From Magallana gigas (Eukaryota): a DNA stretch of 64,000 nucleotides. The position numbers and the translations under genes are program-made. The notes under the pieces were generated by a model. It did not search any database. It was not told the origin of the DNA and saw only the letters and a list, made by a program, of their open reading frames with translations. Below are positions 28,439 to 33,527 of the stretch, in pieces. The DNA is taken from NCBI RefSeq assembly GCF_963853765.1, contig NC_088861.1, positions 21,484,281 through 21,548,280 of the forward strand, given 5' to 3'. The stretch's first letter is position 1; every line of letters starts with the position of its first letter.

Positions 28439-28655
28439 ATGGCGAAGTTTAAGGGGAAATTTTGTAAAAAGGGAAGGGAAAAAATAAATAAGGCTTTGGA
28501 AAGTGGAAGGGAATCACGATGGAGACAAGAAACCGCCTCAGCTGCTAACATTGTACCAATTATTAGCTACGATCATGAGTATGCATGTGACATCCCCGAT
28601 CCAAGTCAGCAAATTGAAATTTCTCTTGATGAAAACTTGAAAGAGGGGGAATGGC
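28439..28655 (+). CDS. Zinc-ribbon/exonuclease gene, exon 1 (ATG start; 3' boundary uncertain)
   Basis: The ATG at 28439 has A at -3 and G at +4. Translation: MAKFKGKFCKKGREKINKALESGRESRWRQETASAANIVPIISYDHEYACDIPDPSQQIEISLDENLKEGEW. The ORF hits a stop at 28667. The proposed donor c|GTGTAC at 28656 joins to 28800 in frame, and the paralogue (ERG-CVVC) reads straight through this junction. Confidence 0.45.
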
Positions 28656-28799
28656 GTGTACCTATATAGGACGAAGAGTTGTAGAACTAGGTAATAACAA
28701 CAAACCAAAACAGACAACATTTGTGTGGACCATACACCGTAATTTTAGTTTATATGCTATGGAATATTATATCTAATGTGTTGTTAAAAATTAACTTAG

Positions 28800-28945
28800 G
28801 AATCTTGGCAGACGGATTAAAGTCTTGCCAGCTATGCAAGTCAGCCCATTGCACTGGTGAGAAAAAATTTGGATTAGGACATATGTTGCTGATGAGATGT
28901 AACTATTGTCAACTTGTTAAAGGACTGATCTCGTGTTGCTATATT
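28800..28945 (+). CDS. Exon 2: CxxC..CxxC zinc-ribbon (3' boundary uncertain)
   Basis: (R)ILADGLKSCQLCKSAHCTGEKKFGLGHMLLMRCNYCQLVKGLIS is homologous to CVVCHKPLNLTKCVKEKQYGLVSLLYIECTCCKELTIV of the 4.4-4.7 kb paralogue. Acceptor TTAACTTAG|G. A stop occurs at 28946 and no clean donor was identified. Confidence 0.45.
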
Positions 28946-29475
28946 TAGCGGTATTTGGCGCAGTTTAGATAGAATAATAACATAAATGAAAATTCCGTAT
29001 TTTTATTGCCCCCACGCTGCGCTATTAAGCTTTTTATTGACCCTTTTCCAAGCCACTAATATTCCCAATTGCCGTTAATTAGATAGAGGGTCACGTGGTG
29101 CAGTGATAAGCTGTTTGAAAACAATGGTAATCCATGTGGCGAAAAACCCGTAAATACAGCATCGCCGATCGATTTTGAAACATCAAAAACATGTCAGCGA
29201 CTCTGGGAAATGTTTCTAATTACATATAAACCCTGGAAGAAGTGATTTGCAGAGGGAATTTCAAAGAAAACAGCGAAAACTGAGGGAAGAAAAAGGACGC
29301 CGAGGAACGATGTCGGTACTTTCGGTTTGTATTAATAATTGTTTTCTCACCGATTTACATGAAATAAAGTCATTTAATCAAATATTAAATCCATAGTATT
29401 TATTCAAATCAAATTTTCAAAATAAATATTTATTATTTATTTATAATAAACGATTTAACCGAGTGAAACAACCAG

Positions 29476-29542
29476 ACTGGCAGCCGGGATAAAACTATCG
29501 CTGGTGGTATTGCTTGGGATGTTAACACAAAGTTGGCAGCAG
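29476..29542 (+). CDS. Exon: TGSRDKTIAGGIAWDVNTKLAAG
   Basis: Acceptor CAACCAG|ACT, donor G|GTAAGG (perfect consensus). It is homologous to GKRHNIGANGQGPFDVNTKLG of the paralogue. It ends with 1 extra nt, in phase with the next exon. Confidence 0.6.
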
Positions 29543-29674
29543 GTAAGGATAACTTTCAAACTTGGAATGAGACTTAATTAATTTTGATAACAAATAAATA
29601 AATCTTAGGGATACATTAGTAAACAAAAGAAAATTGTATTTGATTTTCACAAGAAAATATTATAATGATTGTAG

Positions 29675-29846
29675 GCATGATAGATGCTGGTCTTGGAGAG
29701 ATGCATGTGAATAGTTTATTGTCTGCTATGAATATTCCAACAATACCACCCAAGAGCATTAAGTGCAGAGAAAGAGAAATTGTACCTCATCTAGCAGACA
29801 TGGCAGAGGAGACCTGCAGGAAAAGTTTGGAGGAAGAAGTTAGATT
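29675..29846 (+). CDS. Exon: (G)MIDAGLGEMHVNSLLSAMNIPTIPPKSIKCREREIVPHLADMAEETCRKSLEEEVR(L)
   Basis: Acceptor GATTGTAG|GC, donor TT|GTACGT. The phase is consistent with both the previous exon (1 nt carried) and the next exon (2 nt carried). Confidence 0.6.
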
Positions 29847-29978
29847 GTACGTATATTATTGAGTTAACTTTTAAAGAAAATCACTGACTGTTGTTATTTA
29901 ATTTTTCCCTCTATATGCTACCACAGAAACCAAATATTTAATATATAACCAGAAAATATGCATTTGTTACTTTATTAG

Positions 29979-30058
29979 AAGTGATGGAAATTTAACAGCA
30001 AGTTTCGACGGAGCGTGGCAAAAAAGAGGTACAGGCCGTGCTTACAACAGTTTGCCAG
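29979..30058 (+). CDS. Exon: SDGNLTASFDGAWQKRGTGRAYNSLP (candidate catalytic-Asp motif SFDGAW)
   Basis: Acceptor TGTTACTTTATTAG|A (pyrimidine-rich), donor CCAG|GTTGAGT. Phase consistent on both sides. Confidence 0.6.
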
Positions 30059-30178
30059 GTTGAGTACAAATTTTGATTTAGTTATTGTCCCGGTGACAAA
30101 TGAAAATTTGATTTTATAAAGGGTTACCTAGTATTGGATGTTTTTTACATCCAAAGTTTAATATATTTGATAATGCAG

Positions 30179-30893: not shown

Positions 30894-30995
30894 TGTGCTA
30901 AGTTTTGAAACATTAAATATAAATACATGTTTAGTACATGTATTAAAGTTCATCTTGTTTAGATATTGACTGCAATTTATCAAATTTGATTTCAG

Positions 30996-31071
30996 GTGAA
31001 CATGACAAATGTGGGGCATGGTGCAGGAGTGAAAAATCAGGCTACGTACAAGCCAAGGAATTTGCCATATG
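30996..31071 (+). CDS. Candidate exon (frame ambiguous: CEHDKCGAWCRSEKSGYVQAKEFAI or VNMTNVGHGAGVKNQATYKPRNLPY)
   Basis: Acceptor TTTGATTTCAG|GTG, donor ATATG|GTAAGC (strong). Both frames are open. The frame depends on which donor ends the previous exon. Confidence 0.4.
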
Positions 31072-31161
31072 GTAAGCCTCTGACAGATCAGCCATTACGT
31101 GTTGCCCTGGAAGACCTTTTAAAGTATATGCTTGAAAAGTCGAGGAATTGGCCACTTTAGG

Positions 31162-31222
31162 ATCCACGCAAAGTAACGAAAATTTCAACCATATGGTAGC
31201 AAGCAAAGCACCAAAAAGAATG
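31162..31222 (+). CDS. Candidate exon: (G)STQSNENFNHMVASKAPKR
   Basis: Acceptor CCACTTTAG|G, donor AAT|GTAAGT (perfect). It is phase-consistent only with the VNMTNV frame of the preceding exon. The link to the next identified exon at 32543 is unresolved. Confidence 0.3.
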
Positions 31223-32542
31223 TAAGTTTACTGAAAAAGAATCACAAGTGCAAGTATTCTAGTAAATAATATTTCATACTACATGCTTTAAGTACATGTA
31301 TTTGAGACACACACAATTATGATGAGAGGTTTTATGGCAGATCTGAGAGTCTAAAAACAAGAGTTTCAGCCACTGTATGCCAAAAGAATGAGGGTTACAA
31401 ATATATCACTGTGGTAGAACTGTTAATTGCAGATGCAGTTTAGATTGACAGATTGTTTTAATAACTTTTTTATTTAGAATTACCTTTTGTTTGTTTTATT
31501 GTTGTTAATTTTGATTTCATAAATATTCGATTGCCAGATTGTAATACATGTATGAATCTGCCTGCACACATACACACTTATATGTTTTTATATATCTTGT
31601 TACCTAGTGCTACCCAAAATATATAATATGCTTATAATATTTATGAATGTATTTTGTTCCATGAAAATGTATATTTGCAAACTGGTCATATTGCGTAATT
31701 TTTCACTTTATTTTTCAGTTGTTCATATATTTGAAATCATAATAATTGTTATTAAATTATTACTAACATATCAAATAATTTCAGAGAGCCTTTTTTTTTA
31801 ATCCAGCATTCCATGTAATTTTGAATGAATTTTTGATTTTTATGTTTAATACATGTATATTGCTAGAAATAATACATGTTCATGACATTTTAACATGTAA
31901 TGAATAGTTATCCTTAATGAATTTGAATTACGTGTTAATTTCTATGTAGTTGAAGTAATTAATAAATAAGTGTTTTTCTGTCTTTTAAAGTAGATCCAGT
32001 GTTCTGTGACGTCACACTTTTTTGTAAAACTTTGAATTCTTTAAAAATTGTGCAAGATAGTTTTATTTATTTCATGTGAATATAATCACATGGATGTAAT
32101 TAGAATTATTGGTAGGTTCAAGATATTTTCGCACTTAATTTTATACTAAATTTCCAAATTTTTATATATTTTATCTATGCAAAGGGGAAATAACTCTTTT
32201 TCTGACTTTTCTCTTAGTTGTATGTCTAAATGCTATAATTTTTCTTATTCCAACGATTAATTTTAAAACATTTTTGTAATTTTAGTTTTCTGATAAAGTT
32301 GACATTAAAATTAAACAAGAAAAACAAATTTCTGCCTACAAGATTTTACTTTTAACAAAAAAAAATACATTTTTCTAATGCTAAAATATGCTTTAGTTCA
32401 TGTTTATCTGGCATCTCAAAAAGTGTGATGACATGTATATTTTTTCTAACAATTGATGACATTTAAGTCTATTAAGTCGAAATCAGTTCGGTTTTTCAAC
32501 TTTCCTCAGAGAATTTTACGAGTATGGAGCTACCTTAATTAG

Positions 32543-32702
32543 CTTAACAAGAGGTGTCAGATGTCTCCCGGCAGATTTACGGTAAAATACACCCCAAAAC
32601 TGGCAAATTCATTAAAAAGGAAGCGGTTACTTCAAGCCCAACGCAGTGCCAAACTGAAGAGTGAAAGGTTATCAAAAGATGCTACTCACTCAGTGCTTGA
32701 GG
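32543..32702 (+). CDS. Exon: LNKRCQMSPGRFTVKYTPKLANSLKRKRLLQAQRSAKLKSERLSKDATHSVLE (basic, NLS-like)
   Basis: Acceptor CTTAATTAG|CTT directly after an in-frame TAG, donor GAGG|GTAAAT. 53 codons open. Confidence 0.55.
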
Positions 32703-32821
32703 GTAAATAAAATACATGTACATGTACTTATTTCACACTGTATATAATGGCAATTTTTGTTAAGCTAGAGCATATCATATCATGATTGCAATGTATAAAA
32801 GTTGTTCCAAATTTTTTTTAG

Positions 32822-32959
32822 GTGAAACCTACAGCACCAATATTGGATTTAATGAATGTACTGACAAAGAGGACATCACCATTCCGTCAAAAGAGTTCTC
32901 CGTAGACAGCAGTTCCTTGATAGTTTTTTTACCTAGAAACTACAGGATTAGGTTAGTTT
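32822..32959 (+). CDS. Exon: (G)ETYSTNIGFNECTDKEDITIPSKEFSVDSSSLIVFLPRNYRIRLV(Y)
   Basis: Acceptor TTTTTTTTAG|GT carries 1 nt from the previous exon. The weak donor T|GTAGTA at 32960 gives a phase compatible with the final exon. Confidence 0.5.
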
Positions 32960-33045
32960 GTAGTAACCTTTGTTATGTATGCGTAATTGATATTTGATTA
33001 CAAATTATTTGGAAGGATAAGTGTACTTTTTACATTATATTGCAG

Positions 33046-33527
33046 ATTATTGCACATCAGACATCCTCCAAATCGCTTGTGTGTGTGGGGAGAGAGAGCT
33101 TAGCGTCTATACAAGACCAACCTGTACTATCAGTATTGGTGCCTCAGCTGCCACAGGATTAACATATTATGGAGGAGTTCTAAAGCTGAAGGGAGAAGCT
33201 GTTGATTCGTTAACAATTTTCGAAGGACTTGAACAGTTTATTGCATTTGTTTCGAGTTTTCCAAAAGCAGTTTTGATTGGACATAATATCATAAGTTTTG
33301 ATATCCCTGTGCTTATGCATAATCTTTCCAAGCACAACCTACTTGAGAGATTTCAAGAAATTGTTTTTGGATTTGTTGATACTCTCAAGTTGTCCAAAAG
33401 GATTTATCCAAAAGCAGAAATGGGTAATTACAGGCAAGAAAACCTTGTCCAGAAACTTCTGGGAGAAACATACAATGCGCACAATGCAGTTTCAGACGTA
33501 GAAGTTCTCCAAAGACGAAAAACTTAA
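33046..33527 (+). CDS. Final exon: DnaQ-like DEDDh 3'-5' exonuclease domain
   Basis: Acceptor TTATATTGCAG|AT. Translation: YCTSDILQIACVCGERELSVYTRPTCTISIGASAATGLTYYGGVLKLKGEAVDSLTIFEGLEQFIAFVSSFPKAVLIGHNIISFDIPVLMHNLSKHNLLERFQEIVFGFVDTLKLSKRIYPKAEMGNYRQENLVQKLLGETYNAHNAVSDVEVLQRRKT*. Exo II motif H-N-x-x-x-F-D and Exo III motif H-x-A-x-x-D lie about 66 aa apart, and the DILQIACV helix follows the expected Exo I position. No canonical D-x-E Exo I motif was found. Confidence 0.7.

Follow-up and report, generated by a model that had tools for sequence, protein, structure and literature searches.

Two loci within a 64,000-nucleotide stretch of the Magallana gigas genome (assembly GCF_963853765.1, contig NC_088861.1, positions 21,484,281 to 21,548,280; hereafter the window, with positions counted from its first letter) are very probably dead relics of KolobokD cut-and-paste DNA transposons, which belong to the Kolobok superfamily. 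The lineages of this superfamily were defined by their accessory proteins (Kojima and Bao 2022, Mob DNA 13:24, PMC9587614), and KolobokD, reported from molluscs, arthropods and cnidarians, was described as Kolobok combined with a DEDDh (DnaQ) exonuclease. An earlier note made from the sequence alone had seen at the larger locus (copy 1) a multi-exon gene combining a zinc ribbon, an RNase-H-like core and a 3'-5' exonuclease, and had found this architecture unlike any well-known superfamily; it is that of the published KolobokD lineage. It has been reported that Kolobok elements are flanked by TTAA and have 5'-RR...YY-3' termini, the latter separating them from piggyBac, and that their transposases carry a C/DxxH signature between the second catalytic Asp and the catalytic Glu of the DDE (Asp-Asp-Glu) core. 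A zinc finger lies between C/DxxH and the Glu, which is reported missing in MuDR, P and hAT, and a CCHC zinc finger follows the first Asp in KolobokP/E/D/5 (Kojima and Bao 2022).

The coding blocks of copy 1 were found by three-frame translation of 28.4-33.9 kb and then chained on the plus strand. The assembled translation matched PF20700 over the full profile (1-357/357, E 2.4e-67), so that a profile search of the central region, the check suggested earlier, led to a transposase family and to no ordinary host-gene family; the RuvC/TnpB alternative received no support. The named Kolobok sequences for comparison were taken from the alignment in Data S5 of Kojima and Bao (2022), where the families stand under older names and not as 'KolobokD'. 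The D-to-E core of copy 1 was 61% identical to Repbase Kolobok-9_CGi of the Pacific oyster over 247 residues (E 6e-113), and its identity was 42% to Kolobok-7_CGi, 41% to Kolobok-1_CGi, 34% to Kolobok-1_ADi and 25% to KolobokE-1_LGig. At a core identity of 61%, the family of copy 1 is therefore a different one from Kolobok-9_CGi.

Conservation was scored on an alignment of 30 full-length relatives, with residues numbered as in the relative P0027, the representative of a 49-member cluster at 90% identity whose protein is annotated in identical form at several loci. D229, D323/D325, D345xxH348 and E468 were invariant, the CCHC finger C268/C271/H284/C286 was conserved, and in the PH..G(D/E)H..C...WC finger, which reads PHLYGEHDKCGAWC in the window, H408, C411 and C416 were invariant. 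The N-terminal zinc ribbon (CQLC, CNYC) was likewise upheld, its Cys columns being invariant or nearly so. Copy 1 has kept the catalytic triad, namely the Asp of SFDGAWQKRG, the Asp of MDNDST and the Glu of NENFN. Three catalytic Asp motifs had been proposed, and two of them, SFDGAWQKRG and LVMDNDSTT, proved right; GIAWDVNTK instead begins a helix in the N-terminal domain, and the triad is completed by the Glu of NENFN. The Cys-rich insert noted before corresponds to the CCHC zinc finger already known from KolobokP/E/D/5.

Copy 1 (28439-33806, plus strand) consists of 12 exons that align in order with residues 7-867 of a protein from Ostrea edulis, which is intact and 871 aa long. The phase-consistent GT-AG exons described before were confirmed, since all 11 gaps between exons have in-phase GT-AG boundaries, and 9 of the 11 gap positions are introns of annotated relatives at 38-49% identity. 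The gaps 28691-28799 and 28916-29475 have GT-AG boundaries, yet there are no introns at these places in the closest relative (Saccostrea cucullata); exon 1 of the closest annotated relative is uninterrupted over residues 1-165, and copy 2, the second locus of the window, is also continuous there. Either lineage-specific introns or insertions acquired later could account for these two gaps. Of the extent given previously, 28439-33527, the start was retained whereas the end had to be moved, because homology continues for 279 nt past 33527 to a TGA stop at 33804-33806 and covers the PML_C domain.

Copy 1 is a pseudogene and no working gene, and the view of it as a functional multi-exon gene had to be given up. 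Seven frame changes lie inside its exons (28660/63, 30742, 31045/47, 31142, 32928/30, ~33502-12 and 33684/87), and in-frame stop codons are also present. The three subchains into which the earlier exon assignment fell are apparent only, because they result from these within-exon frame changes. The Exo I motif is out of frame and has its Asp replaced by Tyr, and the DxxH signature, which reads YSNH, shows the same substitution. At least one of the frameshifts is a 4-nt insertion outside a homopolymer, and frameshifts co-occur with the substitutions of catalytic residues.

In Pfam searches the tail of copy 1 matched RNase_T (DEDDh) and Exu_RNase_H_like, and PML_C weakly. In both the window translation and intact relatives, PF20700 and RNase_T/PF00929 belong to one protein, with RNase_T on the C-terminal side, so the C-terminal DEDDh exonuclease predicted before was found as expected; Exo II and Exo III are intact, and Exo I is there too in mutated form. 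The exonuclease residues conserved in the relatives are D613/E615, D705 and H763/D768 (DLETT, HNxxxFD and HxAxxD). A protein search returned 63 relatives, many of them intact, about 820-900 aa long and containing PF20700, RNase_T and PML_C; the hosts of this intact architecture were oysters, pearl oysters, scallops, mussels and one hemichordate. In a hemichordate-protein search the fused architecture was found in bivalves, hemichordates, a damselfly, ants, many parasitoid wasps and sawflies, and corals. Copy 1 thus resembles the published KolobokD in the DxxH-containing DDE core, in both zinc fingers and in the downstream DEDDh exonuclease, and relatives of the window copies share with it the TTAA flanks, the RR...YY termini and the published host range. 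They differ from it in that the window copies are dead and have no recognisable termini, and the fusion also occurs in the hemichordates Ptychodera and Glandiceps, which are absent from the published host list.

The weak end of the hemichordate-protein search contained proteins with PF20700 and YqaJ, which correspond to KolobokE. This lineage has the same PF20700 transposase followed by a downstream nuclease, a PD-(D/E)xK lambda-exonuclease/YqaJ; however, this nuclease is of another fold and polarity, and the core identity to copy 1 is about 25%. Since the PF20700 matches span KolobokD and KolobokE, the Pfam 'Mutator-like transposase' is in practice the Kolobok core. As a side observation, six fused Mytilus proteins (P0019, P0021, P0022, P0028, P0043 and P0044) showed no match to the Exo I and Exo II motif patterns, while Pfam still called RNase_T/PML_C in them. 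This Mytilus clade may represent KolobokD lineages with an inactivated exonuclease, or the motif patterns may be too strict.

The second locus, on the opposite strand, had been described as a deletion copy at 3897-4696. It is indeed an internally deleted derivative, but its coordinates were corrected to 3812-4672 (minus strand). Residues ~70-164, from the zinc ribbon to DVNTK, are fused directly to residues ~690-880, which include Exo II, Exo III and PML_C. The missing ~520 codons include the whole DDE core, as is typical when DNA transposons give rise to deletion derivatives. The copy also has one in-frame stop and one frameshift, and its N-terminal part has no introns. Copy 2 is closest to Mizuhopecten/Mytilus-type proteins. 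According to tblastn, copies 1 and 2 are the only copies in the window. They are divergently oriented and lie almost symmetrically about ~16.6 kb, just outside the arms of an inverted duplication of ~3 kb (6525-9609 versus 26691-23647, 88-92% identity); their mutual divergence (~35-40% at the amino acid level) is too great for them to have been part of that duplication event. The features of both copies are collected in Table 1.

Table 1 Features of the two KolobokD copies in the window, with positions counted from its first letter
Feature	Position	Strand	Description
Candidate 5' terminus, copy 1	28281-28325	+	TTGA then AGTAGTCCGAG...CTACGTCACAC, 154 nt upstream of ATG
Exon 1	28439-28690	+	N-terminus (MAKFKGKF...) to GRRVVELG; frameshift 28661-28662
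Exon 2	28800-28915	+	N-terminal zinc ribbon, CQLC from 28826, CNYC from 28898
Exon 3	29476-29542	+	Conserved WDVNTK motif (29515-29532) of the N-terminal domain, non-catalytic
Exon 4	29675-29846	+	Helical region before the DDE core
Exon 5	29979-30058	+	First catalytic Asp, SFDGAWQKRG (30001-30030), strand beta1
Exon 6	30233-30432	+	beta2-beta3, CCHC zinc finger (CRIC...HAC, 30298-30354), helix alpha1
Exon 7	30527-30790	+	Second catalytic Asp, LVMDNDSTT (30536-30562); YSNH (from 30614); frameshift 30742
Exon 8	30996-31221	+	Zinc finger PH..GEHDKCGAWC; catalytic Glu, TQSNENFNH (31166-31192); frameshifts 31046, 31142
Exon 9	31329-31413	+	FYGRSESLKTRVSATVCQKNEGYKYITV
Probable nested element	31989-32534	+	546 bp, in the 1129-nt intron 31414-32542; TTAA at 31985-31988 and 32535-32538
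Exon 10	32543-32702	+	Conserved basic helical linker KRKRLLQAQRSAKLKSER (32615-32668), possible nuclear localisation signal
Exon 11	32822-32951	+	Spacer and Exo I mutated to YLETTGL (32930-32950); frameshift 32929
Exon 12	33046-33806	+	Exo II GHNIISFD (33279-33302), Exo III AHNAVSDV (33477-33500); frameshifts ~33502-33512, 33685-33686; TGA 33804-33806
Exon 12, C-terminal part	33580-33803	+	PML_C/SAM-like domain
Copy 2	3812-4672	-	Internally deleted, decayed KolobokD derivative of a sub-lineage other than that of copy 1
Copy 2, zinc ribbon to DVNTKLG	4627-4394	-	
Copy 2, Exo II	4355-4332	-	
Copy 2, Exo III	4160-4137	-	
Copy 2, PML_C	to 3812	-	

The transposon origin and the mobile family assumed for these loci were substantiated by relatives that are nearly identical, dispersed, bounded by terminal inverted repeats (TIRs) and flanked by TTAA. 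Five copies in Saccostrea echinata are ~99% identical over 14.3 kb and lie on five chromosome-scale contigs among unrelated neighbours, with sharp boundaries. In 5/5 copies the ends are TTAA-GGTGTTTCGCTTCTGAC...GTCAGAAGCCAAACACC-TTAA, that is, GG...CC termini with a 17-bp TIR, and the 14.3 kb unit contains no further open reading frame (ORF) of at least 110 aa. The family closest to copy 1, the P0004 cluster of S. cucullata, has a 5.8 kb unit which ends TTAA-AGTAGGGGTC...GGGACCTACC-TTAA (AGTAGG...CCTACC) in 2/3 copies, with AG...CC termini and an imperfect TIR of ~14 bp. Some family members lie inside introns of other genes. Among the ~99% identical S. echinata copies, private insertions of 4.8 kb (L002 12494-17288) and 316 bp (L001 21917-22232) were also seen, which are secondary insertions into young elements.

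A possible 5' end of copy 1 was recognised upstream of exon 1. The TTGA in front of it may be a degenerate TTAA, and the end itself begins with AG (AGTAG). Similarity was seen to the left end of the S. cucullata family, TTAA-AGTAGGGG...GACGTCA (z=3.3 in pairwise comparison with shuffles), and the match to the left end of a probable nested element in an intron of copy 1 was stronger (z=5.9, 1/2000 shuffles). This segment has the ends AGTAGATCCA... and ...GGAGCTACC, which are AG...CC as in the S. cucullata family; its TIR is weak (z=2.7) and it stops 8 nt before exon 10. These similarities were recognised by eye and have moderate support; the segment, with TTAA on either side, is probably a non-autonomous Kolobok-type element resembling a miniature inverted-repeat transposable element (MITE). 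Copy 1 yielded no 3' terminus to match its candidate 5' end.

Several points weigh against the assignment of the window loci to KolobokD. No TIRs or target-site duplications (TSDs) could be demonstrated at either copy. Flank-versus-flank searches stayed at background level, with chance-level matches only in blastn around the window copies; in the inverted-repeat search around both copies the signal was swamped by microsatellites, and a scan of the window for TTAA-RR...YY-TTAA pairs gave a score equal to that of control regions. Even when as many as 3 mismatches were allowed, the S. echinata TIR was not found in the window, and the S. cucullata termini gave no match above background in the window (blastn-short, Smith-Waterman). 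The 5' end of copy 1 is a post hoc candidate spotted by eye, of moderate strength. Since the TTAA of the relatives was read at filled sites, it may be part of the terminus instead of a duplication. Some frameshifts of copy 1 could in principle be assembly errors, but the 4-nt insertion outside a homopolymer and the accompanying catalytic substitutions speak against this.

The Pfam name of PF20700 would make these loci Mutator-like elements (MULE/MuDR), which is very unlikely. The TTAA flanks and RR...YY termini of the relatives indicate Kolobok and not Mutator: no duplication of 8-11 bp flanked the insertions of eight relatives, which had TTAA flanks and TIRs of 14-17 bp rather than long ones, and for the relatives the TTAA junctions refute a MULE. 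Moreover, the core is close to a named Kolobok family, the zinc finger between DxxH and the Glu is the one reported missing in MuDR, P and hAT, and a MULE-wide survey mentioned no exonuclease. A piggyBac-type element would account for the TTAA at both ends of active relatives. However, piggyBac elements have CCC...GGG ends and a DDD transposase of PF13843, whereas the relatives end in GG...CC or AG...CC, which is the RR...YY pattern that separates Kolobok from piggyBac. No piggyBac transposase family was among the Pfam matches, and a DDE core with DxxH that is 61% identical to Kolobok-9_CGi points the same way, so a piggyBac origin can be practically dismissed.

It is also highly improbable that the locus is a functional host gene, i.e. 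a domesticated fusion of transposase and exonuclease, although the multi-intron structure is conserved across lineages only 38% identical, many intact family members are annotated as genes in RefSeq, and stand-alone genes with the exonuclease (Exo) and PML_C exist without a nearby transposase. Against this, copy 1 carries seven frameshifts, stops and losses of catalytic Asp, the window also contains a deletion derivative, and the family occurs in many dispersed copies of ~99% identity, with TIRs, unrelated neighbours and in some cases a position in introns of other genes. The stand-alone Exo+PML_C proteins of shrimp, snail, coral and insects could further suggest that a transposase gene and a separate neighbouring exonuclease gene were wrongly chained, but dozens of single-protein models from bivalves, hemichordates, insects and corals contain both domains. 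Both halves also lie in one TIR-bounded unit without another ORF of at least 110 aa, copy 2 joins the N-terminus straight to the exonuclease tail, and the exonuclease is part of how KolobokD was defined in print; chaining of two genes is thus almost certainly not the explanation.

The AlphaFold2 model of P0027 had a mean predicted local distance difference test (pLDDT) score of 83. The RNase-H elements were modelled in the order beta1 (D229), beta2, beta3, CCHC finger, alpha1, beta4 (D323/D325), alpha2 and beta5 (DxxH); E468 lies on a helix further downstream. WDVNTK started its helix off the catalytic sheet, and the basic linker of exon 10 was helical. The core modelled alone reached a pLDDT of 86.5, and its structure matched Hermes, ISCth4, integrases and the P element. 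As modelled, the core is an RNase-H-like DDE transposase, and the nearest solved folds include hAT and P, which share C/DxxH. The transposases of hAT (Hermes), IS256/Mutator (ISCth4) and the P element show, however, a sequence identity of only 9-14%, and these elements have other TSDs (8 bp, 8-11 bp) and lack the Kolobok zinc fingers and the exonuclease.

An intact element carries a single gene, interrupted by introns, that encodes a protein of ~820-900 aa. By comparison with the superfamily, the N-terminal CxxC...CxxC zinc ribbon would bind the element ends, and the RNase-H-fold DDE core would excise the element and insert it at TTAA, giving the TTAA-RR...YY-TTAA junctions seen in relatives; the chemistry is likewise taken from the superfamily. 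The basic helical linker is then followed by a DEDDh 3'-5' exonuclease of the Plex9/PML type and by the SAM-like PML_C domain. It has been proposed that the exonuclease trims DNA intermediates during transposition (Kojima and Bao 2022), and most likely the tethered exonuclease would trim the 3' ends of such intermediates at the excised element or at the donor gap. Alternatively, by analogy, it may have a role like that of TREX1/Plex9, in which its targets would be excised or cytosolic DNA, or intermediates of retroelements. Copy 1 has lost function through the seven frameshifts, the stops and the Asp-to-Tyr changes in Exo I and DxxH, and it has probably also received a nested MITE-like insertion.

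When compared by sequence with solved structures, the KolobokD exonuclease matched four chains of ~190 aa (E 1e-27 to 1e-31), one of which, 9MRC, is zebrafish Plex9.1; TREX1 was matched at E 0.03. It has four acidic residues and a His in Exo I-III and is closest to Plex9/PML, not to TREX. In intact relatives the exonuclease (EXO) domain is followed by PML_C (PF25244) at 52-90 bits, above the gathering score. A profile of the EXO+PML_C module matched gar PML (8e-53) and loach plex9.1 (5e-51), and also stand-alone Exo+PML_C proteins in coral, shrimp, snail, ants, wasps and oysters. The homology is solid, and the KolobokD exonuclease (EXO and PML_C) can be assigned to the same family as vertebrate Plex9 and PML exon 9. 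For the shrimp and periwinkle stand-alone genes, no transposase remnant was found within 10 kb. In Palaemon carinicauda (L006 10001-10945) an intronless Exo+PML_C ORF of 314 aa was noted in an intron of an EF1-gamma-like gene, with no transposase within 10 kb; it could have arisen as a retrocopy, or it could represent a non-autonomous element or a host gene of recent origin.

It has been reported that zebrafish Plex9.1 and gar PML have nuclease activity on DNA 3' ends (PMC10123124). Plex9 and PML are host genes of vertebrates that either stand alone or are joined to an RBCC/TRIM module (NAR 2023; PDB 9MRC/9MRD), and Plex9/PML restrict long interspersed elements (LINEs), whereas the KolobokD module is the C-terminus of a transposase. 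In Drosophila Exuperantia (Exu) and in the PXL of human PML-I, which have EXO-like and SAM-like parts, the DEDD residues are lost and the proteins are not nucleases; intact KolobokD proteins, in contrast, retain the full DEDDh set. A recent preprint (bioRxiv 10.64898/2026.02.19.706916) stated that the SAM subdomain stands beside EXO in no other nuclease and only in the pseudo-nuclease Exu. However, KolobokD and many stand-alone invertebrate proteins pair an intact DEDDh site with PML_C. Kojima and Bao (2022) likened the KolobokD exonuclease to Exu, TREX and ERI1 only, and not to Plex9/PML. The PML/Plex9 papers examined, PMC10123124 among them, contained no mention of transposases or invertebrates, and our literature search found nothing linking PML/Plex9 exonucleases to Kolobok, Mutator or other transposons. 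As far as we have seen, the kinship between KolobokD and PML/Plex9 was previously unremarked.

In an exploratory neighbour-joining tree of the modules the vertebrate clade had 98% support, and its placement among fused and stand-alone invertebrate modules had 0-14%. No vertebrate fusion protein surfaced in the hemichordate-protein search. It is conceivable that the PML/Plex9 exonucleases of vertebrates arose by domestication of a KolobokD exonuclease, though we consider this rather unlikely; conversely, an early Kolobok element may have captured an ancestral host gene. The KolobokD exonuclease is a relative of Plex9.1/PML with an intact catalytic site, so that the origin of PML/Plex9 becomes a testable phylogenetic question. 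The vertebrate PML/Plex9 exonucleases have been described as retroelement restriction factors and their deeper origin has not been given, and the transposon link bears on it.

The window locus in itself is an ordinary decayed copy of a DNA transposon, with an architecture named KolobokD in 2022. Of more practical relevance is an annotation trap, as the PF20700 label 'Mutator-like transposase' covers Kolobok transposases (KolobokD and KolobokE), and thousands of invertebrate gene models are KolobokD transposon genes that go under the names 'DNA polymerase III PolC-type-like', 'protein PML-like' or 'Exonuclease domain-containing protein'. Furthermore, the recently active-looking Saccostrea KolobokD families with defined ends would be good substrates to probe a transposase-tethered 3'-5' exonuclease.

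Besides the two copies, other features were observed in the window, which is AT-rich (28-38% GC) with many microsatellites and dispersed repeats; an Rfam scan of the whole window gave no match. A MITE-like foldback of 803 bp lies at 34785-35587, with inverted arms of ~140 nt that are 80% complementary and start with AGCTATACACGC. It has Kolobok-style TTAA at 34781-34784 and 35588-35591 and RR...YY ends, and in sequence it is not related to the termini found in the family of copy 1. Inverted repeats symmetric about ~41.5 kb were found at 36707-37423 versus 46277-45561 (99.9%) and at 38832-38994 versus 44224-44062 (98%), with one 95-aa ORF per arm and no Pfam match; possible explanations are a large palindrome, a big element of which these are the TIRs, and an artefact of assembly. 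Between copies 1 and 2 an ORF at 15350-15769 (minus strand) contains a Major Vault Protein (MVP) repeat (PF01505, E 5.6e-9) and corresponds to a host MVP gene or fragment. Satellite-like tandem arrays with units of ~160-172 bp and 78-96% identity are located at 12281-12884, 14761-15264, 20401-21415 and 50621-51612.

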